This document shows, one piece after another, positions 40,601 to 64,000 of a stretch of 64,000 nt of DNA. Every line of letters begins with the position of its first letter. Within the stretch, counting starts at the first letter, position 1. The DNA is from an uncultured Ignavibacteriaceae bacterium (GTDB taxonomy: Bacteria; Bacteroidota; Ignavibacteria; UBA10030): NCBI GenBank assembly GCA_964651225.1, contig CAZYYD010000001.1, positions 50,811-114,810 of the forward strand, given 5' to 3'. The translations under genes and the position numbers were made by a program. The notes under the pieces are model-generated. The model was not told the origin of the DNA, did not search any database, and was given only the letters and a program-made list of their open reading frames with translations.

Positions 40601-40670
40601 GGCAACTGCTGCTGGAAAATGTATCTGATGAATTCTTGATTCTGACTTCTGTATACTGTTTCACTCGAAT

Positions 40671-43217: not shown

Positions 43218-43273
43218 TGGTCAATATTTCAAAACAAATAAATAGTGAACAGAGGAAAAACAATGAGTATCGA

Positions 43274-44440
43274 TCAAGCATTCAACTCGCGTTCAAGAAT
43301 CTGATACACTTCCGAAAGAGGAATATTCTTCTCTGACGCGATCCGTTTGCATTCTTCAAACTCGACACGTTTCTGTTCGTTGCCGTCAACCGTAACGATT
43401 TTGATGGAGACAGGGCCGAAAATGGTATTGATCTTCGTATGGCGACGCGGAAGTTTTTTCCTCTCCACTGGCTGAATACGCACACCAATAGTGGTTGTCT
43501 CGCGGAAAACAATGTCAAGAATTCGGTCGATCCTTGCACGCTCCGCGAGAATCGAAAGGAGAATACCGGGACGTCCCTTCTTCATGACGATTGGAATGAG
43601 ATAGGCATCGTGCGCACCAGCAGCAAGAAGCTTTTCGATGATGTACGGATAAATCTCCGGATTCATATTGTCAATATTGGTTTCGATGCTGACAATTTCA
43701 TCGGCGACGTATTCAGGTGCCAGTTCACCAATGAAGACCCGGAGTAAATTAGGCAGCTGTTCAATGTCCCGTCCGCCTGCACCGTAGCCTATGGCAGAGA
43801 CCTGTATTCTCTCTGCCGAGAGAACGCCCTGTGAGAGAGCTTTGATGATTGCAGCTCCGGTCGGTGTTGTCAGCTCAAATGGAACATCGGTCAACACAAC
43901 GGGATAATCTTTAAGGATTTCTATCGTGGCGGGTGTGGGAACGGGAAGCATCCCGTGCTGGGTTTTCACCATACCGCCGTTGCCGACTTTCATGGGCGAT
44001 GAATAGACTTTCTGAATACCCAGCATCTCTAAACAGATCGATGCTCCAACGATATCGACCAGTGAATCGATTGCTCCGACTTCGTGGAAGTGCACCTTTT
44101 CAATACTGGTGTTATGCACGTTTGATTCGGCAACAGCGATTTCATGAAAAATTTTCTTTGACCGCTCTTTGACAGTCAGGGAAAACTCGCTGTCGTCAAG
44201 AAGTTTTTCGATGTCTTTCAGGTGACGATGGTAATGCGGTTGTCCGGAAATGAGGACATCCACCTTGACAGCGACGATGCCGTTGCGTGTGATATGTTGT
44301 GCCGAAAGTTCAAATCCGCTGAGGTGGAGCTTCCGGAGTTCTGAAATCAAATCGTCGATGGGAATCCCGGCGCTGACGAGAGCGCCCAGTGTCATATCGC
44401 CGCTGATGCCGGCGATGGTGTCGAAGTATGCTATTTTCAT
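43274..44440 (-). CDS. larC: LarC-family nickel-pincer cofactor biosynthesis protein (DUF111)
   Basis: The conserved N-terminus MKIAYFDTIAGISGDMTLGALV and length fit LarC. The start is trimmed from the 449-aa ORF. Confidence 0.75.
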   Translation of the reverse strand: MKIAYFDTIAGISGDMTLGALVSAGIPIDDLISELRKLHLSGFELSAQHITRNGIVAVKVDVLISGQPHYHRHLKDIEKLLDDSEFSLTVKERSKKIFHEIAVAESNVHNTSIEKVHFHEVGAIDSLVDIVGASICLEMLGIQKVYSSPMKVGNGGMVKTQHGMLPVPTPATIEILKDYPVVLTDVPFELTTPTGAAIIKALSQGVLSAERIQVSAIGYGAGGRDIEQLPNLLRVFIGELAPEYVADEIVSIETNIDNMNPEIYPYIIEKLLAAGAHDAYLIPIVMKKGRPGILLSILAERARIDRILDIVFRETTTIGVRIQPVERKKLPRRHTKINTIFGPVSIKIVTVDGNEQKRVEFEECKRIASEKNIPLSEVYQILERELNA

Positions 44441-44469
44441 GGGATATTCGTTCTTCCAGTCGTCAATCG

Positions 44470-45765
44470 TTACAACACTTTCGAAAGATGCTCGATGAAT
44501 CTTTTTGTCGCTCCGACATTCTCTTTGACAAGTTTTAGCGACACCTGTCCGGCTCGTCTCGCCGAGCGGGCATCCGTATCTTCTTTCCTTCCGCGGAGCA
44601 GTGTTCGGATTGTCCGATAGCATTCCTGCTGATCATGAATCACAAACGCTCCGCCGAGGCGAAGAAGTTCCTGCGCTTCCTGAGAATTCGTATAACGCGG
44701 CCCAAAAAACACTGGAATACCATACACTGCCGGTTCTAACACATTGTGGATGCCCTGCCGGAAACTGCCTCCGACGTATGCAACATCGGCGTACTGGTAT
44801 AGCGCCATCAATATTCCTATGCTGTCGACAAGGATCACCTGTTCGTGTGAATAATCGTTCAGCAGAGAGAATCGAATGAATGTTGTTTTGGAGTTGAGCT
44901 GCCGTTCAATTGTTTCTAATGCCTCTTCCGTTGGCTCATGCGGAACGAGAATGATCAGAACGTTTGAATCGTACTCCAGGAGTTTCTTTATCGTCGGCAG
45001 GAGGACTTCCTCATCTTCAGGCCATGTACTCCCGGCGACCAGGACATTCTTTCCTTTCAGAACAGCAGAGGGAATAAGATGCTTTTTCTTTGCTTCGGTA
45101 CTGCGCTGCCATACCTGGTCGTACCGGGTTTCACCGATCGCCTGCATAGTAGGATGTGTTAAACCAAACCGGGAAAATGCTTCCACGTCTTTTGTGGACA
45201 CCGTGAGAATGGATTCGAAGTTGTCAAAGAGCATCCGATGGAAGCTTTTCATCAAAGGAAAGAAACGGGCAGAGGATGTGCGCATGGTGGCGTTGGCGAT
45301 GAAAGCAGGAATATGTCTCTCGGTCAGTTCCCATAAGTGATTGGGCCAGACATCGTACCGCACAAACACGGCTGCTGTCGGCTGGAGCAAATCCAGGAAG
45401 CGGCGGGCGTTTATCGGGGTATCGAACGGAATGTACGTGATGATGTCGGCAAATTTGTAATTCTTCGAATGATCGTATCCTGAAGGGGAGAAGAACGTGA
45501 CAATGATATTGATGTCCCGGTATTTTTTGCGCAGGGCTGCTATGATCGGTTTTGCCTGCTCGAATTCGCCCATAGAGGATGAATGAAACCATACACGTCT
45601 TGTTGATGTAAGCTTCTGGACATCACGTTCCAACTGTTCGAACAATCCCTTTCGACCCTGAATTCCCCTGCGAACTTTAAACTTAAAGGGGGCGGTCACA
45701 TGCAGCACAAACCAGAAAGAAGGGATAAACAGCCAATTATAGACAATAAAAAAGAGGTTTTTCAT
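44470..45765 (-). CDS. waaA: 3-deoxy-D-manno-octulosonic acid (Kdo) transferase
   Basis: An N-terminal membrane anchor and the Kdo-transferase pattern (VWFHSSSMGEFEQAKPIIAAL) on a glycosyltransferase fold. Confidence 0.75.
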   Translation of the reverse strand: MKNLFFIVYNWLFIPSFWFVLHVTAPFKFKVRRGIQGRKGLFEQLERDVQKLTSTRRVWFHSSSMGEFEQAKPIIAALRKKYRDINIIVTFFSPSGYDHSKNYKFADIITYIPFDTPINARRFLDLLQPTAAVFVRYDVWPNHLWELTERHIPAFIANATMRTSSARFFPLMKSFHRMLFDNFESILTVSTKDVEAFSRFGLTHPTMQAIGETRYDQVWQRSTEAKKKHLIPSAVLKGKNVLVAGSTWPEDEEVLLPTIKKLLEYDSNVLIILVPHEPTEEALETIERQLNSKTTFIRFSLLNDYSHEQVILVDSIGILMALYQYADVAYVGGSFRQGIHNVLEPAVYGIPVFFGPRYTNSQEAQELLRLGGAFVIHDQQECYRTIRTLLRGRKEDTDARSARRAGQVSLKLVKENVGATKRFIEHLSKVL

Positions 45766-45850
45766 TAGACAGTTATTACTTAATGAAGCGAAATTTCGAA
45801 ATTATGGTAGAGAAAGTTTGACGGAAATGCAAGGATGAGGGAACTAGGTG

Positions 45851-47191
45851 GTTGCATCCTTTTTAGTGGGGGGAAGGGCTTGCTCTCAGATGCTGAGTTT
45901 GGGCATTAAGATATTGGGCTCGCAAGACAAGAAGATTATTGGCACCTTCGCGGGACCATCTCATACCTTGCCGTTTCATACGTTTCTTGACCACGAGATC
46001 AGCCATTTTTTCGATGACACCAGAACCATGAATATCATTGGGATGATAGTGCATACCATCAAGATTTCCTTCGACATACTGGGAGAATGTTCGAAGCTCC
46101 TGAGCGTGCTGTTCATCCGATGGGTGCAACGATCTCAGATACTTCAATGCTGTGTTTGGTAATCCTGTCATCACAAAGCTCATAAATCGTTTATATTGAT
46201 GACTCACCAACACCGTCCCGGCTTTCTCCTTCAGATGATATAAATCCAGAGTAAAACGACTTGTTGGTAAAACCGCTTGTCGCATCGTGCCAATCCACGG
46301 CGCTCCATCGCTCAAAAAATGCACGGGATCATCGCTGCGTAATCCTGCACTTCGACAGTGTGCATACAAATGCTCTGCAAATCCATCGGCATCTTCCACT
46401 TGAGCATAGACACTGCGTTCACTGGTTGCCCGTCGACGGGGACTCAGCTGTCGTATCCCTCTGAACATCACTCCTATCTTGACCTCCATCCGATGTCGTC
46501 CAAAATCATCAAAAACCCCTCGTTCACGGCTTCCAATCAACGTTCCGTCTGCTTCTATCACTGCCGGTCGTGGTGGGTGGGGGGGCTCGGCTGTCGTGGC
46601 TGCCTCAAAAACCTTCCGCCGTTCCTCTTCCTGCCGTGCTCGTTCCTGTATTCCTTCTTCCTGTATAATCTTCCACAACCTCATTCGCGAGATTTGCATC
46701 CCCCACTCTTCCTGCAACAACCTCGCACTCCAACCATAGGATCGCTCAATCGCTAAACGCTTACATCGTCTCCGTGCATGAACCGTCTCTCCTCCTATGC
46801 CACAAAGATCTCGCAGGGGATAGACACTATGGCCGTTCTTGTTCCTATAACGATGTACCTTGACTCGGATCTTCCCCACACCACTCAAAATCGTTCTCTC
46901 CACCAATCCCTTGTTTTCATAACCTCCCCAGTGTAGTACCTCTTGGGAGGCTTGACGATCCAGGTTCTCAAAATACTCCCGCAGTTCCTGTCGTTGTTCT
47001 TCCCGATGGCGTGCTTCCAACGTTATTTCAAATCTATTGACTTCTTCTTGCCACTTTTGTAGCTTTTCTCTGTCCAAACGTCGTACCATAAGGGTTTATC
47101 TCCTGAGCTGGTTCATCGGTCGCTAGCCTTTGTTCCATCTTAGAATAAACCCTTCTTCTTTTCAATACCCCCACACTTCTACGGATGCAAC
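45851..47191. mobile_element. insertion sequence, ISKra4-like family (about 1.34 kb)
   Basis: A single DDE transposase ORF flanked by imperfect terminal inverted repeats (left GTTGCATCCtttttagtgggggg, right ccccacacttctacGGATGCAAC). GC content is clearly higher than in the flanking DNA. No clear target-site duplication was identified. Confidence 0.5.
45863..47089 (-). CDS. DDE transposase, ISKra4-like
   Basis: IEADGTLIGSRE, LSDGAPWI and the C-terminal HGSGVIEKMADLVVKKRMKRQGMRWSREGANNLLVLRA resemble ISKra4-family transposases. Confidence 0.7.
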   Translation of the reverse strand: MVRRLDREKLQKWQEEVNRFEITLEARHREEQRQELREYFENLDRQASQEVLHWGGYENKGLVERTILSGVGKIRVKVHRYRNKNGHSVYPLRDLCGIGGETVHARRRCKRLAIERSYGWSARLLQEEWGMQISRMRLWKIIQEEGIQERARQEEERRKVFEAATTAEPPHPPRPAVIEADGTLIGSRERGVFDDFGRHRMEVKIGVMFRGIRQLSPRRRATSERSVYAQVEDADGFAEHLYAHCRSAGLRSDDPVHFLSDGAPWIGTMRQAVLPTSRFTLDLYHLKEKAGTVLVSHQYKRFMSFVMTGLPNTALKYLRSLHPSDEQHAQELRTFSQYVEGNLDGMHYHPNDIHGSGVIEKMADLVVKKRMKRQGMRWSREGANNLLVLRAQYLNAQTQHLRASPSPH

Positions 47192-47385
47192 GTGGCGCAT
47201 AAGCTGCGCCACTGAAAACTATCAATGTACTGTGAACGAACCGAGTTCATACTAAAAACGAACTTGTTGACCACTTAAGTTATGAGGTACAAAGAACGTA
47301 ATAATAAAAACTGAAACCTACCACACGCAATGCGTAAAGTAGTGGGCTCATTGCGTCAGCTTGATGCGCGGGTTAGGCGGTTGCG

Positions 47386-47883
47386 TTAAAAATTGTATAG
47401 GACATAAAGTCCCGCGCTGGGATTAAGCGTCCCGGAAGTAAAATAATATGTAGGATAGTACAGTATAAAACCGCCGCACAAATTATTACGTTTCTCTTTT
47501 GTCATAAAAGGTGTTTCAATACAAGTTGCCAGTGCTAATCTATTCTTCGTGTCTTCTTTAGATGATCCATAGACTCCAAAACTCGGTCCGAGAAAAATAT
47601 TGAATCCTGGAGCATTTGCCAAATAATAATGGACATCAAAACCATAGGTATATTCTGATTCCTTCTCCAATTTGATCCACCCTCCGGTTACTCGGTAGCG
47701 AAAGTCATTGGAGGTATAACAATATGTAATACCTGTACCTGCAACCCAACTTGCCTGGAATCCAAACGAGGAAAAAGATCGTTGTGATTTATTTTGAGAA
47801 GTATCCTGAGCACGAAGACTTGAAATGAGAAACAAAAAAGGAATAATAAAGATAAACGAAGACTTAAAGAGATGGTTAGTCAT
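47386..47883 (-). CDS. outer-membrane beta-barrel protein (OmpA-like/porin-type small barrel)
   Basis: A signal peptide (MTNHLFKSSFIFIIPFLFLISSLRAQ), alternating amphipathic beta-strand pattern and a C-terminal aromatic residue (..YVLYNF), in an AT-rich segment. Confidence 0.5.
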   Translation of the reverse strand: MTNHLFKSSFIFIIPFLFLISSLRAQDTSQNKSQRSFSSFGFQASWVAGTGITYCYTSNDFRYRVTGGWIKLEKESEYTYGFDVHYYLANAPGFNIFLGPSFGVYGSSKEDTKNRLALATCIETPFMTKEKRNNLCGGFILYYPTYYFTSGTLNPSAGLYVLYNF

Positions 47884-49194
47884 AACAATTCCCCAATTGT
47901 AATATTGAAATAAATTATGGAAACTATTCCAAAGTTTACGCAACCGCCTAATCTATGATTAGATAGAGTGAGTCCATATTTTGTGCGTAATAGGATGATA
48001 TATAGACTTTGTCTATGTTTTTGTAATATGAAACACGAGGAATATCGAGGTTTTGAGTTTTCGTAAAGCCATCCGCTAGATATGCAGGCCCCTGCATATC
48101 TTCCCTGGCTCCAATATCGATTTCCTTGCAGCCAAAATCAAGCTTGAAATAAATATTATAAAAATACCGGAAACCGCGAAGACTTCTTTCAAAAATCAAA
48201 ATATTTTAAGAATGACACCCCCCACCCCCTTCACGGGTACTACCTTCTTGTAGAATTCCGCGGTCATCCAGCTTCGTTTGTTTGCTCCCTTGATCTATGT
48301 CGTAGTACCTCCGCCGTTCGAGAGTAGATGGTATCACCACCTCGATGAGGCTCAAAAAGAAAGCTTTTCTGTGGCCCCTTTTCATTGTATAAGAATATAG
48401 CAACATCTTCATCTTTCCACCGGCATTCCTTCCCTGCCAGATCTTTTTCTGCGAAGCTTTTAGGGACTCGAAAGGCAACATGCTTCCAATAGATAAAAAA
48501 AGAGCGCAGATACTTTGCACTCTCTATCTTGTTTACAGGTATGCGACAGCTTTTATTGAAGTAATTGTCGGAGGGATGCGAGGCGGGATCTTTCGACGGA
48601 ATATCGTTTAGATAATTCCTTCATTTTGTACCCGTCAGTCAAGTTATCGAGGAATCTCTGTTCCTCATTGGTCAGGACTACCAGGGAGTCATTTGCTACC
48701 GTAAAGTCCAACGGCGTGATACGCATCGGCAGTAGGAACTCTGCAACGCTATCGGATCAGTGCCCTTCTTCACCGGTGAATCAATTGGTACTTATAGATG
48801 AATAAACACGTCAGATTTCTTCTTTCCAACGTCATCGATGGAGGCTTCACACTCTTTCATAGGAAGAGAAACAAGAATGAATGAGTTGAGTTTACCTATA
48901 GAGAAGTTATTCGGTTTTTGTGTGTTGACCATCGGCAATAGGTTTTCTAATATTTAACTGGAATTCTACATAATGTTGCAGTGATTTATTTGGATTTTTA
49001 GCATTTCCCCTTTCCCCATCTCGATTGCTGCTATTCCTCTCTCTTCTTGTTATTCATAGAATATCCTACTATTATTGCACAAACGTGCGATGTAAATTCT
49101 AGACATGATGGGACTCATTCATGTGAATGAATTTCTTTTGTATGAAGAGCTAGGGGAGCAATCTATTCTTTTCAATAATTATTTCAAAGAATTT

Positions 49195-51090
49195 ATGAAT
49201 CGATTTACCTTTCTTTTCATGCTTGGTTTCCCATGCATGCTTTTTGCGCAGACACTTGAACCATTCCAAGCAGTTGTACGAACTACGAATCCCCAACGCG
49301 TACAACGAGAGAAAAGAGCAAGAGTTCTTTTTGATCATGCTGAGAATAATGTATTAAACTTAAATATTAGCTCGTCTCAACAATCAAAGAATTCAAATAG
49401 TGCGCATACGACCGTTTCTCCCTCTGAAGGATTCATACTTGGAACAACGGATTATGACTACGTCTGGAACAGCGGTTCACGCCGTACTATCGTGGTCAAC
49501 GCTGCAGGAACAAATGTTCACATGGTATGGATGGAACGAAATCTATCATTGATTCCTCCTAGGAATAAATGCACAATGAAATATGGTTACTACGATTGGT
49601 CCCTTGGAACGGTTATTACGGGATATCCAGAACAGAATGTTATCACAGCTTCCGGTTTAGGCAATGTTGATGTATTTTGGGGTGGCGATAAAGATAATAT
49701 TGCAGCAATATGCGGAGGTACACCAATCTGGTTTGCCATTGATCGTAGCCCTGGTGCTGCAAATTTCACTAAAACTAACATTGGAGTAAATGAGTCAACA
49801 GGTCCAGCGATGACGATTGATAATTCAAACGCTGGAACAATTTATTTGACTGGTAATAACGGCGCTCGTAACAACTATTTCGTTCAAAAAAGTACAGATT
49901 ACGGCAGCACGTGGGCAATGTGTGATTCGCTCTTAGTCCATTCTCCATTTGTCACTGGCAACCTGGATGTTGAGGTCCTTGTCGCTCCTAATGGAAACCT
50001 CTTCCTTCCTACCTGTTTATCAGGTTATGGAACAATAAACCAGGTGAGTGCTGATAGTGCCGATTGCGTTGGATATTATAAGTCGACGGATCAAGGCAGC
50101 CACTGGACATGGACAACCATAGCACATGATGGCGATTTGGTTGCTTATGGATCAGAGAACGTTACTAATTATTTTGAAAATTTCGGATCCATGGATGCAT
50201 CGATCGATAAGGACAACAACCTGCATATCGTGATACAAGGGTATGGACAAAAATTAGCCTATGGAACAACAGATATTGTAGCCGCGAATTATTTTGGTAC
50301 ATTATACTGGAAGACCGGTCAATCGGGCTTTAAACTGATTTCCCGCCCGGAAGATGCTCATATTACGGATTTCGACAGCTCTTACTATACAGAGATGTTT
50401 TCAGGGAATGCATTTGGTCATCCATATCCGTCTATTTCAGTTGATCCAGCGGGTGATGGATTGTTTGCGATCTGGTCGCAAACTCGTATTACTAATGGAA
50501 AGCTTGATGTGGCATATAATGGAATTTCGCAATATGATCTCTGGTACAGCTTTTCCACGAATGGTGGTACGAGCTGGTCGACGGCGCAAAAATTAGCGAA
50601 CAGTGATGGCGGGTTGTTTGTCTCTGCTGCTCCAAAATTAACTGTCATCGATGGAAACACCTATAGGGCACATTGCATCTATATTGCTGATACCACTGCT
50701 GGTTGCGCCGTGGTTGGTCAAAGTGCCGCAACGCAAGTACCAGTCGTCTATCGAACAATTGATTTCTTCTATGAAGGGTCTATAACTGGTTCATCCCCTA
50801 TAGTTGATAATCATTCTGGATTACCAAAATATTATAGTCTTCTGCAGAATTATCCGAATCCCTGCAACCCGTCTACACGGATCGAATTCGCACTCCCGAA
50901 GCATTCTTTTGTGACATTGAAGGTGTATGACGTGCTCGGGAAGGAAGTTGCCACCCTATTGAATTCGGCGAAAGAGGCTGGAATATACACGACTACTTGG
51001 AATGCTGAGGGCTGTCCAAGCGGTGTCTATTTCTATCGGCTCTCCGCTGGATCCTATACGATGACGAGAAAGCTCCTGCTATTGAGATAG
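49195..51090 (+). CDS. secreted BNR/Asp-box repeat protein with T9SS C-terminal sorting domain
   Basis: A signal peptide (MNRFTFLFMLGFPCMLFAQT), several Asp-box repeats (STDYGSTW, STDQGSHWT, STNGGTSWS), and a C-terminal about 80 aa matching the Por-secretion CTD pattern (LLQNYPNPCNPSTRIEF...VYDVLGKEVATL...GVYFYRL). Confidence 0.8.
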   Translation: MNRFTFLFMLGFPCMLFAQTLEPFQAVVRTTNPQRVQREKRARVLFDHAENNVLNLNISSSQQSKNSNSAHTTVSPSEGFILGTTDYDYVWNSGSRRTIVVNAAGTNVHMVWMERNLSLIPPRNKCTMKYGYYDWSLGTVITGYPEQNVITASGLGNVDVFWGGDKDNIAAICGGTPIWFAIDRSPGAANFTKTNIGVNESTGPAMTIDNSNAGTIYLTGNNGARNNYFVQKSTDYGSTWAMCDSLLVHSPFVTGNLDVEVLVAPNGNLFLPTCLSGYGTINQVSADSADCVGYYKSTDQGSHWTWTTIAHDGDLVAYGSENVTNYFENFGSMDASIDKDNNLHIVIQGYGQKLAYGTTDIVAANYFGTLYWKTGQSGFKLISRPEDAHITDFDSSYYTEMFSGNAFGHPYPSISVDPAGDGLFAIWSQTRITNGKLDVAYNGISQYDLWYSFSTNGGTSWSTAQKLANSDGGLFVSAAPKLTVIDGNTYRAHCIYIADTTAGCAVVGQSAATQVPVVYRTIDFFYEGSITGSSPIVDNHSGLPKYYSLLQNYPNPCNPSTRIEFALPKHSFVTLKVYDVLGKEVATLLNSAKEAGIYTTTWNAEGCPSGVYFYRLSAGSYTMTRKLLLLR

Positions 51091-51116
51091 AAGTGATATT
51101 CACCTTTTAACCTCCG

Positions 51117-51150
51117 TCCCCAGACATCCACCACCTGGGGCTCTTTTTTA
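51117..51150 (+). terminator. rho-independent terminator after the T9SS protein gene
   Basis: Hairpin CCCCAG-(11 nt)-CTGGGG followed by CTCTTTTTTA. Confidence 0.7.
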
Positions 51151-51338
51151 TTATCGGCGTGGATTGCTACCTCCTGACCCACGTATGGTAAGTGTCATAA
51201 GGACATTACATCCCCCCTCCTCCTCACAATCCTCAACAACGAGAGCACCAAACAAACATCTGGTACAATTTGTTGACAGGATTGCGTACAATGGCAGGGT
51301 ACAAAAAAAGGCATCCACGAATGTGAACGCCTTTGGTG

Positions 51339-51385
51339 TGGACAGGGAGGGAATTGAACCCCCGACACATGGATTTTCAGACCGA
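51339..51385 (-). pseudogene. orphan 3' half of a tRNA-Phe(GAA)-like gene (anticodon loop through acceptor 3' end); no 5' half
   Basis: The reverse complement reads CTGAAAA-TCCAT-GTGTC-GGGGG-TTCAATT-CCCTC-CCTGTCC-A. The variable loop, T-arm and acceptor fold correctly, but no GGACAGG 5' acceptor strand or D-arm lies upstream. Confidence 0.6.
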
Positions 51386-51595
51386 CCGTGTGCGAATTTT
51401 TCGCCGAATTCAGACGAAATTCGCATCAAAAATCATCAAATTAACTGCCAGTGTTAGCACACTGTTAGCAGACGAATTGCATTGAACATAAAACAAAACT
51501 CTGATTCTTCCAAACAAATAATGCAAATATTTTTCAATGAATACTTTGACAATGGAAATCCATACATACGATGGAGTAGAAGAGATATTTATGAA

Positions 51596-52684
51596 TCAAA
51601 TAATATTCCCAGTCGTTGTGTCAAAGAAATGTGATTTTGTCATATCGAGGAATATTTTTCTCTTCTCTCCCACCTTTAATTCCGTTGGTTTCATCCGTGC
51701 AATAATTTGAGACTTTCCTAACGTGCTATAGACAAATATTTCATTTCCCATTGGTTCTACAACATCAATATGGACATGAAGATTGGAACTATTTTTCGTA
51801 TTCCCCATATCTATATGTTCAGGACGAATTCCAAGCCACACCTTTTTTCCGATGTACGGCTGAAGCGTTTTTTGATTTCTTTTCGGGACTTCAAGCGAGA
51901 CCATCGATTCACTTTCAACGAAAAGCATCTTATTTCTTGTGAGAATAATCCCTTCAAGAAAATTCATGGACGGGCTGCCAATGAATCCTGCAACAAATTT
52001 ATTCCGCGGCTCATTATAAAGGTTCAATGGCGTATCTGTCTGCATGACGATGCCATCATGCATAACGACGATTCTATCACCCATCGTCATTGCTTCTGTC
52101 TGGTCATGGGTGACATATATCATGGTTGCTCCAAGCCGTTGATGTAATTTCGATATTTCAATCCGCATCTGTACCCGAAGCTTCGCATCAAGATTCGAGA
52201 GTGGTTCATCGAACAAAAAGACTTTCGGTTTCCGCACGATAGCTCTGCCCACCGCGACACGCTGCCGCTCTCCTCCTGAAAGAGCTTTGGGTTTTCGATT
52301 CAAGTATTCTTCAATCCCGAGGATACTTGCCGCTTCAAGAACACGTTCATCAATCTCTTGTTTTGAATATTTTCGTAGTGTCAAACCGAAGGCCATATTC
52401 TCATACACGGTCATATGAGGATACAGGGCATAATTCTGAAAGACCATTGCGATGTCACGGTCTTTGGGCGGTATATCATTCATAATTTTATCATCGATCA
52501 TCAAAATGCCGTCGGTAATATTTTCCAGACCCGCAATCATCCGTAACGTTGTTGATTTACCGCACCCTGACGGACCTACGAGGACAACAAATTCTTTATC
52601 TCGTACGTCGATGGAGACACCTTTGACAGCCACCACACCGCCTTCATACTCCTTTTTGATATTTTGCAGTTTAACGCTTGCCAC
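51596..52684 (-). CDS. ABC transporter ATP-binding protein, MalK/UgpC/MsmK type (sugar importer ATPase)
   Basis: Walker A (GPSGCGKST), signature LSGGERQRV, Walker B (FLFDEPLSNLD) and a C-terminal TOBE-like regulatory domain. Confidence 0.85.
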   Translation of the reverse strand: MASVKLQNIKKEYEGGVVAVKGVSIDVRDKEFVVLVGPSGCGKSTTLRMIAGLENITDGILMIDDKIMNDIPPKDRDIAMVFQNYALYPHMTVYENMAFGLTLRKYSKQEIDERVLEAASILGIEEYLNRKPKALSGGERQRVAVGRAIVRKPKVFLFDEPLSNLDAKLRVQMRIEISKLHQRLGATMIYVTHDQTEAMTMGDRIVVMHDGIVMQTDTPLNLYNEPRNKFVAGFIGSPSMNFLEGIILTRNKMLFVESESMVSLEVPKRNQKTLQPYIGKKVWLGIRPEHIDMGNTKNSSNLHVHIDVVEPMGNEIFVYSTLGKSQIIARMKPTELKVGEKRKIFLDMTKSHFFDTTTGNII

Positions 52685-53582
52685 AATTCTCTCCCCTCAA
52701 TGCTCCATTTCGAAATTCATTATTTATGCTTTCAATAGCTTGTTCCGTAAGAGTATTTTTCTCCACAGCGACTTTGTTCCAGACTACGGAAAGGATGATC
52801 GATGCAGAAAGGATGCCCAGGACGACACTCAAAGATATTACAATACTGAGAGGATAGAAATGATCCAAAAGCATCTTCGTGCCAACAAACGCCAGCACTA
52901 CCCCCACTCCATATTTCACAAAAATGAATAATTTGTGGATCTTCTCAAGAACAAAATAGATCGACCGTAATCCTAAAACTGCTAGCAAGTTTGATGAAAA
53001 AATAATAAATGGATCCGTCGTTATACCAAAAACAGCTGGAACTGAATCAACGGCAAATACTACATCAGTTGTCTCTATCACCAGGAGCACCACAAAGAGA
53101 AGTGTGGCATACCAGTGTCCTTGTCCTTTGACAAAAAATTTGTTACCTGAATTTCCCTCTTTGACACGAAATACTTTTTTGAACATGCGCGTGACAGTAT
53201 TGTTTTCGGGATGGAGTTCAATCTCTCCACCGAGAGCTATTTTATATCCAGAATATACAAGGAAGACCCCAAACAGATAGAGCACCCATTCAAAATGCGA
53301 GACAAGTTCAGTACCGAGATAAATCATAATTCCACGCAAAATGATCACACCAATGATACCATAATTCAGAATACGCCGTTGTTGTATCGGAGTGATTTTA
53401 AAGAAAGAGAAAATAAGCAGAAATACGAACAGATTATCTACACTCAATGATTCTTCAATGACATAACCAGTCATAAATTCCATAGCTTTTACTTGACCTA
53501 GTTCAAGGTACACACCGAGATTCACCATGAGGGCAAGAAGGATCCATAATACTGTCCAGGCTATAGCTTTCCGTAAACTCAT
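52671..53582 (-). CDS. TerC/Alx-family integral membrane protein
   Basis: The family-typical pattern MEFMTGYVIEESLSVDNLFVFLLIF. The start is trimmed to MSLRKA (53582) so that it does not overlap citF. Confidence 0.75.
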   Translation of the reverse strand: MSLRKAIAWTVLWILLALMVNLGVYLELGQVKAMEFMTGYVIEESLSVDNLFVFLLIFSFFKITPIQQRRILNYGIIGVIILRGIMIYLGTELVSHFEWVLYLFGVFLVYSGYKIALGGEIELHPENNTVTRMFKKVFRVKEGNSGNKFFVKGQGHWYATLLFVVLLVIETTDVVFAVDSVPAVFGITTDPFIIFSSNLLAVLGLRSIYFVLEKIHKLFIFVKYGVGVVLAFVGTKMLLDHFYPLSIVISLSVVLGILSASIILSVVWNKVAVEKNTLTEQAIESINNEFRNGALRGENCGKR

Positions 53583-53602
53583 AGTGGAATCGATTTCAAG
53601 TA

Positions 53603-55177
53603 TTATGGGATAGTGGGATGCACACTGTCTAGGAGTGTCCCGTCCACCCATTGAACGACAGCAACGACATTATCTTTAGTTACCTTTGGCAATTCGGGTT
53701 TCCCGCCGCATATTTCATCTACCTCGCGCTGTATGTCTTCAAGACTTCGGATAGGTAATGAGCTGCTTGATAATTTCTTATTTAGATCGTGCCGTAATGG
53801 ATTTATGGCGATCCCACGCTCTGTGATGACAACATCGATCATTTCTCCAGGCCCACAGAGCGTCGTGACACGATCAACAATGATGGGGACACGATCCCTG
53901 AAAGACGGTATCGCGAGAATAACACATTTTCCGAATAAACAATCCTGCCATCCACCAATGCCATGGAGCAAGAGCCCATCCGAATGGGTAACGACATTTG
54001 CATTAAACTTGATATCTACTTCCGTGGCGCCTAAAACCACAGTATCCAGCATGGATGCAAAATTGCCTTTCCCGTGAAAATTATAACTCGTAAACGGGCT
54101 TGTAGAAACGTGCCTTGGATTTTCACGCAACGACCGAATACCTTCTGCATCGAATGCTTGACCATCGAGAATGTAATCAGTCAATCCTTCTTCCAGCATT
54201 TCAGTAAGATATTGTGTGCTGCCGCCGCGAATAAATCTTGCTTTTATTCCTTGGGATTTCATTCGTTCTTTCAGCAATACAAGGAATGCAAGATTGATTC
54301 CTCCCGCACCCGCTTGGAACGAAAATCCGTTCTGCATAATCCCCGACTCTTCGACAAACTGTGCAATATATCTTGCAATAAGAATTCTATCGGGGCTTTT
54401 CGTTATTTGAGTCGTTCCGGAAACAATCTTCGAGGCATCACCCAACGAATCTACTTCAACAACGTAGTCAACATTGTTTCCCTGGATATGCCATGGAATG
54501 CAGGGAAAATCCACTAACGTATCTGTCACAACGATCACCCTGTCGGCATATTCGGAGTCTCCCAAGGCAAAACCAAGGGGACCGCAGGCAGACTTGCCCG
54601 CGACACCATTTGCATTACCAAAAGAATCGGCACTCGGAGCAGCGATCACGGCTATATCAATATGCACCTCTCCATCCTGTATGGCTCTATATCGTCCTCC
54701 GTGAGAGCGCAGGACCCCCATCCCTTTCATCTTCCCTTCCGAGGCATACCGTCCCAGCGGTCCATTCATGCTTCCTTCAATATGATGGATCGTTCCGTCT
54801 TCCAAATATTTTATCAAATATTCATGGCACGGGAATGATGCACTCGGGAACCAGCGGATATTCTTCACTCCCATTTCTTTGATGGTATCGAACAGAATAC
54901 ACGTTAATCCATCACCATCACGCAGATGATGGTGGGTCGAGATTGTCATGCCGCTCTTCAGCCCTGATTTCTTCAATGCTTCTTTGAGAGTTTGAACGAG
55001 CTTATTTCCGTCGGATGGGTATTCAGTGCAGCTTCGAATCGGAGGGGCAGCCATGAGACGATCAGGTCGGTATTTGCCAATACCTTTAAATGGAACTGCG
55101 GGAATCCCATTGACGATGGTGGGGACAGAACGTCCTGCAGCATTCTTGACGAGTTTTGCCTGGTGTGTGTTTGTCAT
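53603..55177 (-). CDS. citF: citrate lyase alpha subunit (citrate CoA-transferase)
   Basis: Resemblance to CitF along the whole length (GMTISTHHHLRDGD, SFGNANGVAGKSACGPLG, HSDGLLLHGIGG). Confidence 0.8.
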   Translation of the reverse strand: MTNTHQAKLVKNAAGRSVPTIVNGIPAVPFKGIGKYRPDRLMAAPPIRSCTEYPSDGNKLVQTLKEALKKSGLKSGMTISTHHHLRDGDGLTCILFDTIKEMGVKNIRWFPSASFPCHEYLIKYLEDGTIHHIEGSMNGPLGRYASEGKMKGMGVLRSHGGRYRAIQDGEVHIDIAVIAAPSADSFGNANGVAGKSACGPLGFALGDSEYADRVIVVTDTLVDFPCIPWHIQGNNVDYVVEVDSLGDASKIVSGTTQITKSPDRILIARYIAQFVEESGIMQNGFSFQAGAGGINLAFLVLLKERMKSQGIKARFIRGGSTQYLTEMLEEGLTDYILDGQAFDAEGIRSLRENPRHVSTSPFTSYNFHGKGNFASMLDTVVLGATEVDIKFNANVVTHSDGLLLHGIGGWQDCLFGKCVILAIPSFRDRVPIIVDRVTTLCGPGEMIDVVITERGIAINPLRHDLNKKLSSSSLPIRSLEDIQREVDEICGGKPELPKVTKDNVVAVVQWVDGTLLDSVHPTIP

Positions 55178-55184
55178 AGTCGTA

Positions 55185-56384
55185 CTATTTCACCGAATAA
55201 ATGGTCGCAAGCGACAAGATACGCTGTGCTCTTTTCACCACAGGAGCATCGATCATTTTTGAACCCAACGCAACGACACCCGATCCATTCCGCTGTGCTT
55301 CAGTGAATGCATCGACAACACGTTGGGCATATTCGATCTCCGTCGCTGTAGGAGTAAATGCATCGTGAATAATTTGTATTTGCCGAGGATGGATGCACCC
55401 TTTCCCTTCGAAACCGATCGCTTTCGCATCCAGAACACTTTGACGCAGGCCTGCATCGTCCTGGACATCAGAGAATACTGAATCGAGCGCCTGGATTCCT
55501 GCCGCTTTTGCCGCATTGATGATTGCGCTTCGGGCAAACAAACTTTCAATTCCATTTTTCGTCCGTTCAACACCTATATCGGCCGTATAGTCTTCCAATC
55601 CGATGGCCAGACCGCAATTCCATGGGCTCGCAGAGGCAATTTCAAAAGCCCGCACAACGCCAAGGGCACTTTCAATGATCGGGATCAGAAAGACACTGCG
55701 TTTGCTTTTCCGTTTCTCGAAGAGTGCATTCACCTCTTCATCAACATTTTTAATTTGAGCAGCGGATTCACATTTCGGAAGAAGAATCGTCTCAACATTA
55801 TGATGAACGACCTGGCGCACATCTTCAAGACCTTCCGGTAAGGGATTGATCCTGACCATTCGTTCTGCATCTCCAAAATTTACATTCATGAGAGCATTTC
55901 TCACGAGAATGCGCGCGGCATCTTTTTCTGACGGAGCGACACTGTCTTCGAGATCAAGGATGATGCCGTCGGGTTGATGCAATCCTGCATTCAGAAAATA
56001 CTGCGGCTCATTTCCCGGAAGATAAAGCCGCGTCCGGCGTAGACGATCGCGCGAACTGTTTTTTGCATACTCCATCTCGCCCAAAAGATAATTCGTAATG
56101 AATTGTGGATCTGCTCTTTTGAGCGCTGCTTCTACCCTCGCCGCTAGAACGAAGGGAACCGCACCTGCATCTTCAACACTAACGATCGCATCCTCCACAC
56201 CGAAATGTTTGAGGATGTCGGTAATTTGAGACCGGATGGACTTCCCGTAGAGCGAGTCCACTTTGCTTTTAACGTCAATAGCTATTCCGCCGTTCGTCCT
56301 CAGTAATACGTGGACGTGGCAATCCGAGCGAATCGTCGTACCGGTTCTTCCGGCTGATCCGACTTTATGTTTTTGAGCTTTCAT
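55185..56384 (-). CDS. citDE: citrate lyase gamma (acyl carrier) - beta (citryl-CoA lyase) fusion protein
   Basis: The N-terminal about 95 aa resemble CitD (...VEDAGAVPFVLAARVEAALKRA). The rest is HpcH/HpaI-aldolase-family CitE (LYLPGNEPQYF...IILDLEDSVAPSEKDAAR). Confidence 0.7.
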   Translation of the reverse strand: MKAQKHKVGSAGRTGTTIRSDCHVHVLLRTNGGIAIDVKSKVDSLYGKSIRSQITDILKHFGVEDAIVSVEDAGAVPFVLAARVEAALKRADPQFITNYLLGEMEYAKNSSRDRLRRTRLYLPGNEPQYFLNAGLHQPDGIILDLEDSVAPSEKDAARILVRNALMNVNFGDAERMVRINPLPEGLEDVRQVVHHNVETILLPKCESAAQIKNVDEEVNALFEKRKSKRSVFLIPIIESALGVVRAFEIASASPWNCGLAIGLEDYTADIGVERTKNGIESLFARSAIINAAKAAGIQALDSVFSDVQDDAGLRQSVLDAKAIGFEGKGCIHPRQIQIIHDAFTPTATEIEYAQRVVDAFTEAQRNGSGVVALGSKMIDAPVVKRAQRILSLATIYSVK

Positions 56385-56405
56385 GGTCGTTCCATCGAAC
56401 ACATG

Positions 56406-57377
56406 TTACCAGGCATATGCCTCTGGTGCTTCGCCACCCGGACCCGGCCAGATGGCTTCCACTGTTTGAATTTCATCATCCGTTAATGTTGTTTGCAGCG
56501 CATCCACCATGCCACGGACCTGCTCAACTGTTCGCGACCCTATAACCACGGAACTGATCACGGGATTCTTCAGGAGCCACGCGAGCGCGACTGCTTCAGG
56601 TCTCTTCCCGATGGAGGTGCAATATGTTTCATAATCTTCAACTTGTTTCCGATGCTGCGACAGCGCCTTTTGGACCGCCTCTGTTTTTTTTCGCACGCCC
56701 TTTTCATCATTCAGAATACCGGCAAGCAACCCTTCCGCTAACGGACTCCAGGGAATGATGCCAATGCCATGCTCTCGGCATGCTGGAATAACTTCCAGTT
56801 CGACCATTCTCTTCGTCAAATTATACAAACTTTGTTCCGAGATGAGGCCTCCAAGATTTCTCTCTCGTGCGGTGAATTGCGCTTCAACAATATTCCAAGC
56901 CGCAAAATTACTGCTCCCCATATAGGTGATCTTCCCTGCATGAAGAAGTTGATCCATCGCTGACCAGATCTCATTCCATGGGGTCGACCGATCAATGTGA
57001 TGCATTTGATACAGGTCGATATGATCCGTCTTAAGACGGCGTAAACTTGCTTCGCAGGCAGAACGGATATGATATGCGGAGAGCCCCCGTTCATTGATCC
57101 CTTCACCCATTTTCCCGTACACTTTTGTTGCCAGGACAATCTTTTCACGTCGTCCCCCGCCGCGGGATAGCCATTTCCCGATGAACTCTTCCGTTCTTCC
57201 TCGATGACCGATCCCGCCATAGACATCGGCAGTGTCAACAAAGTTTATCCCTGCTTCAATCGCCGTGTCGAAAATGGCAAAGCTGGTCTCTTCATCAACT
57301 AATTTGCCGATATTCATTGTGCCGAGGCATAGTCTGGAGACCCGTAAGCCCGAACGACCGAGTGTTGAATATTCCAT
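56406..57377 (-). CDS. aldo/keto reductase
   Basis: AKR family pattern (LGRSGLRVSRLCLGTM, INFVDTADVYG). Confidence 0.85.
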   Translation of the reverse strand: MEYSTLGRSGLRVSRLCLGTMNIGKLVDEETSFAIFDTAIEAGINFVDTADVYGGIGHRGRTEEFIGKWLSRGGGRREKIVLATKVYGKMGEGINERGLSAYHIRSACEASLRRLKTDHIDLYQMHHIDRSTPWNEIWSAMDQLLHAGKITYMGSSNFAAWNIVEAQFTARERNLGGLISEQSLYNLTKRMVELEVIPACREHGIGIIPWSPLAEGLLAGILNDEKGVRKKTEAVQKALSQHRKQVEDYETYCTSIGKRPEAVALAWLLKNPVISSVVIGSRTVEQVRGMVDALQTTLTDDEIQTVEAIWPGPGGEAPEAYAW

Positions 57378-57380
57378 GTA

Positions 57381-58364
57381 TTATTTGACCAATTCAGATA
57401 ATTGAGAAGCGACATCAAAAAGATCCATCCCCTTTGTAAAAGGAAGACAGACTCCTGTCGTGAACCGAACCTTATCGATCCATGGAAGTGGAATACTGCT
57501 CATCCCGTTCATTGCGCCACTGATGGCACCGACAATCGCCGAGATCGTATCAGCATCTCTTCCAAAATTTCCGCTATAAATAATCCCACGCCTAAATTCT
57601 CCATTCGTCAATTTCACTATTGCCAGAGCTGAAGCGACCGCTTCCGGTGAGACTGCTTTGTATTCTGTCCACAACGCGTCATGGAGCGGTTTCCAAGCTG
57701 CCTCCAGTGTTCTCTTCTCTTCGATAATGTTTAACACTTTCGTAAAAGTAAATCTCAACCATGAATCTTTCGGAGTAACATTCATCGCAGTTTGGAATAT
57801 TTCATCGACTGAAGCCCCTACCATGGCAACGGCAATAGAAACCGCAACTGCCTGTGCGCCCCACAGACCATCGCGGGAATGACTAATGCGCGCATCGATT
57901 TCGGCCAACCGGGCAGCTCGTTCCGGATCACCGGCACAGACAATCCCGATCGGCGTGACACGCATTGCCGCTCCGTCGCTCATATAATGGGAATTATACA
58001 CACCGGACAGAGGGGGTAAAACGCCGCGACGTATATTCGCTGCTGCTTCTCGCTCACTCGCGCCACCTCGTTTCAACTCTGAAAGCGGGAGAACATGCGT
58101 TTTCCAACTCTCAAGAACATCAGCGTCGGTCAAATTCCCTTTCGCGTTGATGAGTGTTTGAGCTGTCAGCAATGCGAATTCAGTGTCATCTGTTCCCGGT
58201 GCAGGCTTTTCCGAAAAATCCATCGTAATGCCGTATTGGAAATGATAATCGGGCGAGCGCGCGATATCACCGAATGAATCACCGATTGCGTGCCCCACAA
58301 GGCACGCCCGAGCTCTGTCTTGTAACAACGTTTTATCTTTTACGAGACCTTTTTTTGTCAGCAT
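57381..58364 (-). CDS. ADP-ribosylglycohydrolase-fold protein, paralog 1 (canonical motifs present)
   Basis: GHAIGDSFG, GTDDTEF and GRDADTISAIVGA motifs are all present. Confidence 0.8.
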   Translation of the reverse strand: MLTKKGLVKDKTLLQDRARACLVGHAIGDSFGDIARSPDYHFQYGITMDFSEKPAPGTDDTEFALLTAQTLINAKGNLTDADVLESWKTHVLPLSELKRGGASEREAAANIRRGVLPPLSGVYNSHYMSDGAAMRVTPIGIVCAGDPERAARLAEIDARISHSRDGLWGAQAVAVSIAVAMVGASVDEIFQTAMNVTPKDSWLRFTFTKVLNIIEEKRTLEAAWKPLHDALWTEYKAVSPEAVASALAIVKLTNGEFRRGIIYSGNFGRDADTISAIVGAISGAMNGMSSIPLPWIDKVRFTTGVCLPFTKGMDLFDVASQLSELVK

Positions 58365-58373
58365 AGTGCACTT

Positions 58374-59717
58374 TCAATGTTGAGGTGAATATTTCGCGAG
58401 TTTCGATGTCCGGTTTGCAAGATCGCTGAGCAGAGCATGATCGAATCCTTTCAGACTGCTTCGAACTTTATTATTCAGAGGAGAGATCCATTTCGATGGA
58501 AGGTTCTTTGCACCGAGCATCGTACCCATGATCGAGCCAACCGTTGCGCCATTACTATCTGTATCCCAACCTCCCATCACCACATTGCAAATAGCCCGCT
58601 CATAGTCCCCTTTTGCGGAAAGCAACGCAGCAACGATGAGGGAGGCATTGTTAATCGTATGGACCCAGTGATATGTTCCGAATTTTGCATAAAGAGCATC
58701 AACTGTTGCATCCCACGATTGTTTTTGAATTGGCAAAGATGTGACAAAGCGAATTGCTTCTGCGAACCGGGAGTGAGGCGGGACAAACGATAGTGCATCG
58801 TGTATGACAGCTTTTTCGTCAGGAGAGCGAAACGATGCGGCAATTGCAGCGGCAAAAAACATCTCCCCATACATGCCATTACGAACATGACTCAGTCTGG
58901 CATCACGCCAGGCGAATTCCGCAGCGCGTGCCGGCTGTGTGGGGGAAATCCAGCCCCAGACATCCGCCCGTATCTGGGCGCCAATCCATTCGCGGTATGG
59001 ATTTCTTACGATTGCCGTCTCTGGCGGTTGGAGACCGGTAAGCCGGTTCACATACGCGACACGCTCCGCCGTAAATGTTGAAAGAACCGGCGCTAAGTCT
59101 AACCAGGTTTGGATGATATGCTCCGATGTCAATGCTTCACCATATCGCTCGTATGCCGACAAATTCAGCATCGGATAATTCAAGTCATCATCCTCTGGCA
59201 TGCATTCGATGTTCTCTTTGAGACTTTCTTTGCCGTTGTGTCTATTCCAAGGGTATTTTTGCAAAAGAGAATCGGGTATTCCGCGTCCTGTGATATATTC
59301 AGAAATGGGCCATGTCCCGTTCGAGGACAGCAATTCGATAACCCCCGACCGGGGTGTTTTTTCGATCGGTTTCCCGAGCAGACATCCAGCACTTCTGCCA
59401 AGCCACCCTCCAAGAATCCGATCTGCAACGAACGAGGAGGTAAACGAAGGAACAGCGTCAGGTGTGATCGTACATTGTTGCACGATCTCGCTCCAGAAGG
59501 TCGGTTCATTACCTTCGTTGTGAACACGAGAAGGAGTTTTTTCAAGTTTGCGATAGAATTCTTCCGCTTCACTACGGAATTTCTCTTCACCCAGATGAAG
59601 GTTTTCGATTCGGACCCATTCGCGGCGAAGTTCGGTAACATTATTCCCCTCTTCCTCCCTCTGTTGTAATTCATGGTTAATCCGTTCGGCGATGTCTATC
59701 CAGGAGATTTTCATCAT
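58374..59717 (-). CDS. ADP-ribosylglycohydrolase-fold protein, paralog 2 (about 110-aa N-terminal extension; first metal-site Asp replaced: GRSAGCLLG)
   Basis: The ARH fold has the C-terminal GGWDTDSNGATVGS motif intact. Motif 1 reads G-C instead of G-D. Confidence 0.75.
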   Translation of the reverse strand: MMKISWIDIAERINHELQQREEEGNNVTELRREWVRIENLHLGEEKFRSEAEEFYRKLEKTPSRVHNEGNEPTFWSEIVQQCTITPDAVPSFTSSFVADRILGGWLGRSAGCLLGKPIEKTPRSGVIELLSSNGTWPISEYITGRGIPDSLLQKYPWNRHNGKESLKENIECMPEDDDLNYPMLNLSAYERYGEALTSEHIIQTWLDLAPVLSTFTAERVAYVNRLTGLQPPETAIVRNPYREWIGAQIRADVWGWISPTQPARAAEFAWRDARLSHVRNGMYGEMFFAAAIAASFRSPDEKAVIHDALSFVPPHSRFAEAIRFVTSLPIQKQSWDATVDALYAKFGTYHWVHTINNASLIVAALLSAKGDYERAICNVVMGGWDTDSNGATVGSIMGTMLGAKNLPSKWISPLNNKVRSSLKGFDHALLSDLANRTSKLAKYSPQH

Positions 59718-60763
59718 AATATTTTTTGACCTGCCAACGTTGAGATCTCTTCAGTGAGCGCGAGATAATCCTTCCCTGCGAGTGAAGGAACACAAATACC
59801 CTTCAAAACTCCGATAGCCTTCAACCAACTCTCACTGGCAATTGACATGTTCTGCCTTGCACCGACGAGTGCACCGACTAATGCAGGAAGAGTTTCTGCG
59901 CTTTTTGCAAAACCTGTCGCTGTCAGGAGCGCTGTTTCAAATGATTCTCCGTGACTTTGAGCAATACTCAAGGTGAGTGCCAACGTTTCAGGTGCGGCAT
60001 TTCCATAACTGTATTCGCGATTCACAATTCTCTTGTGCAGGTCCGGTACAAGGGAAAAGATGGACCTGCTTTGACCTGCAATGCTCAGTGCCTCATCGAC
60101 GGTCCGTTTGATCCATGAAGACTCCGGGAGGTACTGTCGCGCACGCTCTATGGCTTCTTTCATGGTTTTTCCGTCACACGCCAGCGATATCGCGACAGCC
60201 ATTGCCTGCGCAGCCCAAATTCCATCCTCACTGTTTGTCACTGAAGCATCAATCTCCGCTAACCGTGCGGCTTCATCCGGTCGGCCTGAACAAAGAATTC
60301 CAATCGGGACGGATCGGGACATTGCACCATCATCAAAATAATGCGGATTTTCTTTTCCGCATTGCGGCGGAAGTATTCCATGGTTCAAATTATGAAGTGC
60401 CGCCTGCGTGCTCACGCCTCCTCGTATGGGATCCTTTGATAGAGCAAGATTCATCCATTCTCTCAACACTGATTCCTTATACGAGCTTACCCCAGAAGCC
60501 AATAACGTTCCTGCAGTAAAAGCTGCCCACTCAGTGGGAACCGTTGGTGAAAGACTTAAATGATCCGCCGGCTGATTGAGCGTGAATGGCATCGGTGTAA
60601 CGATCACATTCGTCGTCTCCGATGCTGTATCCATTTCTCGGCGTTTTCTTCTCGTCCATGGAGGAAGAAGAATGCTGCGATGAAACATGGCTGTCCAACT
60701 CATTGCATCGCCGATGGCGAGGCCAATCATGGCATTACGCGCATGTTGCTGGACGTCGCTCAT
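59714..60763 (-). CDS. ADP-ribosylglycohydrolase-fold protein, paralog 3 (lacks the TDDT and GxDxDT motifs; probably non-canonical or inactive)
   Basis: GLAIGDAMS motif 1 is present, but no second Asp cluster exists. It overlaps both neighbours by 4 nt (ATGA). Confidence 0.75.
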   Translation of the reverse strand: MSDVQQHARNAMIGLAIGDAMSWTAMFHRSILLPPWTRRKRREMDTASETTNVIVTPMPFTLNQPADHLSLSPTVPTEWAAFTAGTLLASGVSSYKESVLREWMNLALSKDPIRGGVSTQAALHNLNHGILPPQCGKENPHYFDDGAMSRSVPIGILCSGRPDEAARLAEIDASVTNSEDGIWAAQAMAVAISLACDGKTMKEAIERARQYLPESSWIKRTVDEALSIAGQSRSIFSLVPDLHKRIVNREYSYGNAAPETLALTLSIAQSHGESFETALLTATGFAKSAETLPALVGALVGARQNMSIASESWLKAIGVLKGICVPSLAGKDYLALTEEISTLAGQKIL

Positions 60764-63901: not shown

Positions 63902-64000
63902 GATTCATTTCTCTCGTGTAATTGCAGTCTGATATACATGAACAACATCACCGAAAGGATAATGACCATAACATTGCCAATCGCTGCGGCATAACCGATA
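63898..64000 (-). CDS. carbohydrate ABC transporter permease (MalF-like), 3' end only; the gene continues beyond the window
   Basis: Hand translation of the minus strand gives ...IGYAAAIGNVMVIILSVMLFMYIRLQLHERNES*. The stop overlaps the downstream permease start as ATGA. Confidence 0.55.
   Translation of the reverse strand, partial: IGYAAAIGNVMVIILSVMLFMYIRLQLHERNES

Follow-up and report, generated by a model that had tools for sequence, protein, structure and literature searches.

The 42 nucleotides at positions 51339-51380 (minus strand) of the window, i.e., the whole stretch of 64,000 nucleotides of an uncultured Ignavibacteriaceae bacterium analyzed here, correspond to positions 32-73 of tRNA-Phe(GAA) and, judging from sequence comparisons, are almost certainly a displaced attachment-site copy rather than a decayed pseudogene. 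The reading that we favor, with a probability of roughly 0.7, is that they form the att core of an orphaned attR, from which the element body and the intact tRNA gene would have been separated by deletion or rearrangement, the adjoining operon being resident.

On the minus strand the core reads CTGAAAATCCATGTGTCGGGGGTTCAATTCCCTCCCTGTCCA (51380-51339), and all of its 42 bases are identical to the intact tRNA-Phe(GAA) of about 30 loci in Ignavibacteriota/Bacteroidota MAGs. The anticodon loop, the 3' strand of the anticodon stem, the variable loop, the T-arm, the 3' acceptor strand and the discriminator are retained, and the C at 51338 is invariant in all copies. When searched with up to three mismatches, the 42-mer had a single match in the window and none in 100 shuffles. 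A segment of 47 nt had originally been assigned to the tRNA, with the loss of identity placed inside the anticodon stem: 42 nt are exact, while the last five bases (51381-51385) read TCGGT vs. ATGGA in the tRNA and agree at GG alone, so that the break does indeed fall inside the anticodon stem. Neither ARAGORN nor Rfam called a tRNA at the fragment, the sole ARAGORN call in the window being a tRNA-Val, and even at E <= 10 Rfam returned there nothing but a T-arm-sized tmRNA echo. The 73 nt spanning the would-be whole tRNA fold no better than shuffles (z +0.68). The 5' half is missing, as the original prediction had stated, no cloverleaf is formed, and the fragment is therefore no functional or split tRNA gene. 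A contig of 1,778 nt (L139, JGI 3300028621) stops exactly at 51338, where the att repeat has its last base; a branching of the assembly graph at a second core copy would produce such an end, which is hence compatible with the presence of one in the population.

The 25-nt T-arm/acceptor part of the fragment was scanned across one genome per species and retrieved 40 loci, nearly all of them from Ignavibacteriota/Bacteroidota MAGs. At about 30 of the 40 the match sits in an ARAGORN-called intact tRNA-Phe(GAA), reading GGACAGGTAGCTCAGTTGGTAGAGCAATGGA-CTGAAAATCC...TGTCCA, and at seven (L004, L006, L007, L008, L010, L019, and L022) the 3' piece occurs without the 5' half. All seven fragment loci part from the intact genes immediately 5' of CTGAAAA, and the block of identity extends from the anticodon stem/loop to the 3' end of the tRNA, as found with an anticodon-centered attP subsite (Islander class A). 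The fragment of L004 (6948-6992), carried by a MAG labelled Gammaproteobacteria, shares the T-arm/acceptor and differs at two places in the variable region. An unrelated, GC-rich sequence that lacks the arm motif described below stands on its 5' side, and either a different element family or a mis-binned contig is its probable origin.

The attachment site is identified by what stands in front of the core, namely a conserved arm and the spacing of a motif, and not by the tRNA piece alone. Positions 51381-51479 (minus strand) represent the element-derived arm (P arm) of the att site; they include a GAATTC-rich stretch, and ACACGGTCGGT replaces the D-arm and the 5' anticodon stem of the tRNA. Its 94 nt from 51386 to 51479 are homologous to the 5' side of the same fragment in six genomes (L006, L007, L008, L010, L019, and L022; not L004), with an identity of 74-82% to L019, L010, L008, L007, and L006, and the homology stops at 51479. 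The arm contains at 51451-51469 (minus strand) an exact copy of the 19-nt motif GCTAACAGTGTGCTAACAC, a putative arm-type binding site of the integrase. Throughout the 1.6 Mb of fetched loci this motif is found 131-132 nt before the fragment core in the window, L006, L007, L008, L010, and L019 (the window copy being at -131, as in L006, L007 and L019), and 38 nt after the intact tRNA-Phe in L009, L014, L017, L027, and L031; the sole other occurrence is at -277 in L010.

In L017 and L009 the motif at +38 is followed at once by a gene encoding a 338-aa tyrosine recombinase (PF00589, 123 and 121 bits; SAM-like N-domains), and in L031 the same integrase gene is truncated, cut by an IS. Both ends of one element lie on the same strand of SPRUCE_214 contig 7, with tRNA, motif and integrase at 60.07 kb and arm and fragment at 95.05 kb; the ends are thus 35 kb apart and share a 45-nt direct repeat. 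In the MAG fen_1300 a single contig bears two fragments at a distance of 24 kb, pointing to a tandem array. The conserved arm, the motif spacing and the PF00589 integrase of the sister loci all speak for the earlier proposal that the fragment is the distal att-site copy left by a tRNA-targeting integrase. Core, GCTAACAGTGTGCTAACAC at -131/+38 and integrase together define a tRNA-Phe-specific element family, and can be used to delimit islands in MAGs of the Ignavibacteriota, a phylum that has been little studied. At two of the intact loci, L014 and L027, the P' arm motif is present at +38 with no integrase ORF behind it; they diverge from L017, L009, and L031 right after GCGTACTGGA and look like decayed or different members of the family.

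No description of a tRNA-Phe integrative element family of Ignavibacteriota was found in a literature search or in IMG/VR, where the GCTAACAGTGTGCTAACAC motif gave 0 matches and the family integrase had no relatives. The 25-mer matched in IMG/VR only within tRNA arrays of roughly 290-kb phage contigs; these matches are located in intact phage tRNA-Phe genes and were rejected as att sites. Three such contigs (L044, L045, and L046; 274-291 kb) carry arrays of 13-22 tRNA genes, whose tRNA-Phe has the exact 25-nt T-arm/acceptor of the Ignavibacteriota gene and a different anticodon arm, an identity that may be a clue to the host.

On the opposite side of the core the sequence resembles that of a native tRNA-Phe locus. 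A hairpin with a 12-bp stem followed by T7 (51334-51307, minus strand; -17 kcal/mol, z -5.2) stands directly after the fragment. It is the intrinsic terminator that the tRNA-Phe gene left behind, and transcripts leaving malK would now meet it before any other. The adjacent positions 51265-51306 (minus strand, TTGTACGCAATCCTGTC...) align with the post-terminator sequence of the intact tRNA-Phe in L016 and L036 and of the fragments in L019 and L022, which marks them as native chromosomal flank of the tRNA-Phe locus; terminator and TTGTACGCAAT flank are common to L019 and to the intact-tRNA loci L016 and L036. Compared with L019, the nearest relative, whose terminator is homologous, the window shows 89% identity (56/63) over the 63-nt right flank, 70% (69/99) in the arm and 100% (42/42) in the core, a pattern consistent with host flanks that are orthologous, with elements that are related without being the same, and with a core under constraint from the tRNA. 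The strong terminator originally placed at 51117-51150 turned out to be a weaker hairpin (-10 kcal/mol) on the plus strand, behind the stop of the convergent gene for a T9SS protein (49105-51090), the tRNA remnant having its own at 51334-51307. Since no other minus-strand terminator-like site was found between 51596 and 51334, transcription of the operon whose last gene is malK probably stops now at the terminator inherited from the tRNA gene.

After the tRNA-Phe terminator, a conserved module of 100-170 nt was observed in the window (51201-51306, minus strand) as well as in L016, L036, L006, L007, L022, L019, L008, and L010. It starts with TTTGTACGCAATTCTGTC..AATTTG, which we take to resemble the Bacteroidetes-type promoter consensus, and continues with ..GTGAGCAGGGGAGTGGA.TCC..GTCC. 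In L007 the module is bracketed, relative to L013, by two copies of TTTGTACGCAAT, as if inserted, and an Rfam search of the region and of its sister loci returned no known RNA.

According to the mechanism that we infer, an integrative element would have inserted into tRNA-Phe(GAA), with a tyrosine integrase performing the crossover at the anticodon loop. At one end, beside the integrase gene, the tRNA gene would have been completed by the 3' portion that the element brought along, and the original 3' portion would have been displaced, together with its terminator and chromosomal flank, to the other end, with the element arm in front. What the window appears to retain is this attR (in tRNA orientation), made up of some 95 nt of arm with an intact motif, the core of 42 nt, and the terminator and flank native to the tRNA locus; later a deletion or rearrangement would have parted it from the element body and the regenerated tRNA, leaving the neighboring operon to end at the tRNA terminator. 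The attR is considered orphaned because the ARH/citrate-lyase/ABC operon beside it appears to be resident chromosomal DNA. Against orphaning, the attR looks fresh and complete, with a perfect core, a perfect motif and the right spacing, a condition that would equally fit an element that is still present.

The latter possibility was the one put forward by the original prediction, in which the element lay at higher coordinates and the whole cluster from 51.6 to beyond 64 kb was island cargo. The minus-strand genes leading toward the fragment encode two permeases, a solute-binding protein, four ADP-ribosylglycohydrolase (ARH) paralogues, an aldo-keto reductase, a CitD-CitE fusion, CitF, TerC and a MalK-type ATPase. 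The arm at 51386-51479 does lie on the cluster side and in the right orientation, the attR is intact, and islands of the family reach 35 kb and carry ordinary-looking genes. Indeed, core-looking content alone cannot exclude cargo, as the neighbors of the arm in other genomes are also ordinary metabolic and secreted-protein genes. If a large island carried the cluster, its intact tRNA-Phe and its integrase would have to lie beyond about 73 kb, and a 61-kb ENA contig runs to about 107 kb, past the approximately 72.8 kb examined.

The available sequence nevertheless argues against cargo. A JGI contig (L001), 100% identical to the window over 49714-64000, extends it by 6,763 nt with genes for a permease, a beta-lactamase-family protein and two T9SS proteins, and a 99%-identical strain (L137) adds about 2 kb with an NHL-repeat T9SS protein, for a total reach of about 72.8 kb. 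An intact tRNA-Phe and an integrase had been anticipated beyond 64 kb; in the about 21.4 kb past the fragment (window, L001 and L137) there is no tRNA and no integrase, nor any match to the acyl-CoA dehydrogenase, SDR and GlmS that flank tRNA-Phe in relatives, where the acyl-CoA dehydrogenase gene is the 5' neighbor of the tRNA at 15 loci (74-100% identity). Over 70.7 kb, the family integrase had no tblastn match, no second core copy was present even with eight mismatches allowed, and no second arm motif was found; no integrase appeared among the Pfam-scanned ORFs either.

Synteny and composition, proposed at the outset as further checks of foreign origin, lead in the same direction. The order NHL-LVIVD-hydrolase-beta-lactamase-permease-permease-SBP-ARH recurs in relatives with an LVIVD identity of 77-81%, and the LVIVD protein family counts more than 1400 close full-length homologues across Ignavibacteria. 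From the beta-lactamase gene to CitF, the order is maintained in at least 10 metagenome loci (protein identity 55-94%). The cluster order is kept in L048, L049, the P0006 contig, L054-L058, and L063-L070, and the upstream NHL-repeat T9SS gene is conserved too. Neither the 10 kb preceding LVIVD nor the 10 kb following CitF contained a tRNA-Phe core (<= 6 mismatches) in 80 CitF loci, L048 and L049, and where checked there was no tRNA at all. Downstream of CitF the relatives differ, with one gene set in L055-L057, another in L054, TerC-MalK followed by IS5 in L058 and TerC in L059, so that synteny breaks recurrently at the 3' end of the operon. GC content ranges from 0.44 to 0.50 in the genes between CitDE and LVIVD inclusive, and 5-kb segments between 55 and 70 kb (GC 0.47-0.50) have a tetranucleotide correlation with the whole sequence of r 0.86-0.91, like the 0.88-0.94 of 1-45 kb; the only atypical part, 45-55 kb (r 0.80-0.84), straddles the fragment. 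Elsewhere the window carries ordinary chromosomal genes (hom-thrB-thrC, kdp, pfk, cytochrome bd, lon, priA, larC, kdtA). By these comparisons the cluster looks like resident chromosomal DNA, and its being the cargo of a large island is unlikely; whether neighboring genes are cargo is a matter decided by synteny in relatives, not by adjacency, and on present evidence an annotation should carry no flag of horizontal acquisition for the ARH/citrate-lyase cluster.

Positions 53603-64000 together with L001 1-6763 make up a widely conserved Ignavibacteria operon, comprising an ABC sugar-type importer, four ARH-family paralogues, an ACP(CitD)-CitE fusion and CitF, with the aldo-keto reductase being part of it in some genomes. 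CitC, CitG and CitX are not among its listed genes, and many other CitF loci have CitDE-CitF or tandem CitF pairs without ARH genes.

The atypical segment raises the question of whether foreign DNA lies on the other side, the fragment marking a junction within a tandem array, or else an attP-like site, and the foreign part being the low-GC 47.2-51.3 kb, possibly with terC-malK. This side contains a T9SS protein gene, three small ORFs, a MITE-like repeat and an IS, and the atypical composition of 45-55 kb, where GC is 0.40 in TerC, 0.42 in MalK, 0.43 in the T9SS protein and 0.36 in two small ORFs, is centered on the fragment. The same side also varies between strains, as one strain contig (L140) departs from the window below 51201 and the strain L136, described below, differs there as well; tandem arrays such as that of fen_1300 do exist, and copies of core, terminator and the approximately 100-nt module recur within one genome. 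However, directly behind the core 63-74 nt agree with the native flank found in L019, L016 and L036, the second core and second arm motif of an array are lacking over the 70.7 kb searched, no integrase is present, and the CitF-TerC(-MalK) adjacency occurs also in L058 and L059, all of which makes this arrangement quite unlikely. The fallback of the original prediction was a random decayed pseudogene; such a copy of tRNA-Phe, arisen by duplication followed by random decay or loss of its 5' part with no mobile element involved, would agree with the lack of a partner tRNA or integrase on the sequence, but is hardly tenable given a 5' flank homologous in six other genomes with the family motif at a fixed distance, a break point at the anticodon stem/loop common to all fragment loci, and a retained part that is undecayed between flanks 70-89% identical to L019.

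If the attR is orphaned, as we favor, little room is left between it and resident DNA. The last gene of the adjacent operon, at 51596-52684 (minus strand), encodes the MalK-type ABC ATPase (Pfam ABC_tran and OB_MalK), and the spacer from its stop to the arm (51480-51595, minus strand) consists of malK 3' flank at 51537-51595 and of 57 nt (51480-51536) without relatives among the fetched loci; these 57 nt alone separate resident DNA from the arm. Positions 52716-51537 share 83% DNA identity with the malK locus of L050. The closest MalK homologues (84 and 80%) lie behind GH130 genes in other genomes, and in the orthologue contexts P0122 and P0123, where malK likewise follows GH130, no tRNA-Phe comes after malK; the CitF-TerC-MalK order is found also in L058. 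Owing to the low GC of both genes and to the different gene context of the closest malK homologues, terC and malK, which make up the final 2 kb, could be cargo that has survived. At 51479/51480 itself there is no signature of a breakpoint such as an IS or a repeat. The 83% identity of the malK block (51537-52716) begins 30 nt before the gene and continues for 60 nt past it; its counterparts in other genomes, one of them a contig of the same metagenome sample, stand behind a GH2-GH130 mannoside cluster, and here malK is preceded by terC.

An orphan attR might still be working, so that recombination of attL with attR, by an integrase and an excisionase provided by a family member residing at the intact tRNA-Phe of the genome, would excise or invert the intervening chromosome, a scenario that we regard as most unlikely. 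If it were true, the conserved ARH/citrate-lyase operon would become mobilizable DNA, its transcripts would meanwhile end in a tRNA 3' half and a captured terminator, and the perfect core and motif, set against an arm only 70% identical to that of the nearest relative, would reflect selection and not recency.

Attachment sites of this kind have parallels in known systems. The pheV/pheU islands of Enterobacteria, carrying P4-type integrases, have their crossover near the 3' end of the tRNA gene and repeats much shorter than 42-45 nt. They can be likened to the present family in that the same isoacceptor gene is the hot spot and 3' fragment repeats bound the islands, and they are set apart by unrelated hosts and integrases. 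CIMEs are remnant or cis-mobilizable elements flanked by att sites, both of which they keep, and they undergo accretion at ICE attachment sites. Like them, the present family has att sites that persist without an integrase and, in the sister genome fen_1300, tandem accretion; a CIME keeps both att sites, whereas the window shows one. In tRNA-integrated islands a regenerated gene and a displaced fragment mark the two ends, and the anticodon-centered subsite is a common place of crossover: Islander lists 3760 of 3919 islands with a 3' fragment, and 2083 use the anticodon-centered site (PMC4383910). Its islands with attP subsite A (PMC4383910, and Williams 2002 cited there) share with the window family the displaced 3' tDNA fragment at one end, the regenerated tRNA with an integrase beside it at the other, the crossover at the anticodon loop and the occurrence of tandem arrays. 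Islander requires of them, however, a cognate tDNA and an integrase, and the sequence available here, to about 72.8 kb, contains neither, showing the fragment end alone beside genes that behave as resident. Fragments of tRNA genes generated by the integration of mobile elements are known to be mis-annotated as tRNA genes (PMC9897764); the present one is likewise a partial copy arising from integration, non-functional as a tRNA and beside element DNA, but unlike those it was called by neither ARAGORN nor Rfam. The element family, from Ignavibacteriota, appears to be undescribed by the searches given above, and the feature itself is a class-A tDNA att site of a well-known kind, an ordinary scar.

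Signs of rearrangement were found near the fragment. The strain L136, 97.5% identical, matches the window over 40533-45850 and then continues with a GH113 gene and a 185-aa ORF, the divergence at 45850/45851 coinciding exactly with the end of an IS (45851 being its first base), 4 kb from the fragment. In a relative with 78% identity the kdp operon precedes kdtA, while in the window kdp is 30 kb away, and the KdtA-proximal side is a breakpoint in both this relative and the 97.5% strain; KdtA contexts, searched for the ancestral neighbor, showed the breakpoint only. The IS (45851-47191) is multicopy, and two assemblies of the same strain show 72 differences, every one of them within this IS. It encodes a UPF0236-family transposase (45863-47089, minus strand) and has 23-nt imperfect terminal inverted repeats (GTTGCATCC...). 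It abuts the end of a non-coding repeat of roughly 190 nt (47194-47387) that looks MITE-like; this sequence has terminal inverted repeats (GCAACCTAACC...GGTTAGGTTGC), and its copies in different genomes are 70-75% identical. This repeat matches island DNA in L017 and L007 and was considered as a sign of an element on that side of the fragment, a candidate rejected in view of its MITE-like nature and of its several copies per genome. Further copies are located in L007 (6211-6395) and L017 (6262-6451), and several partial ones in L008, L013 and L031.
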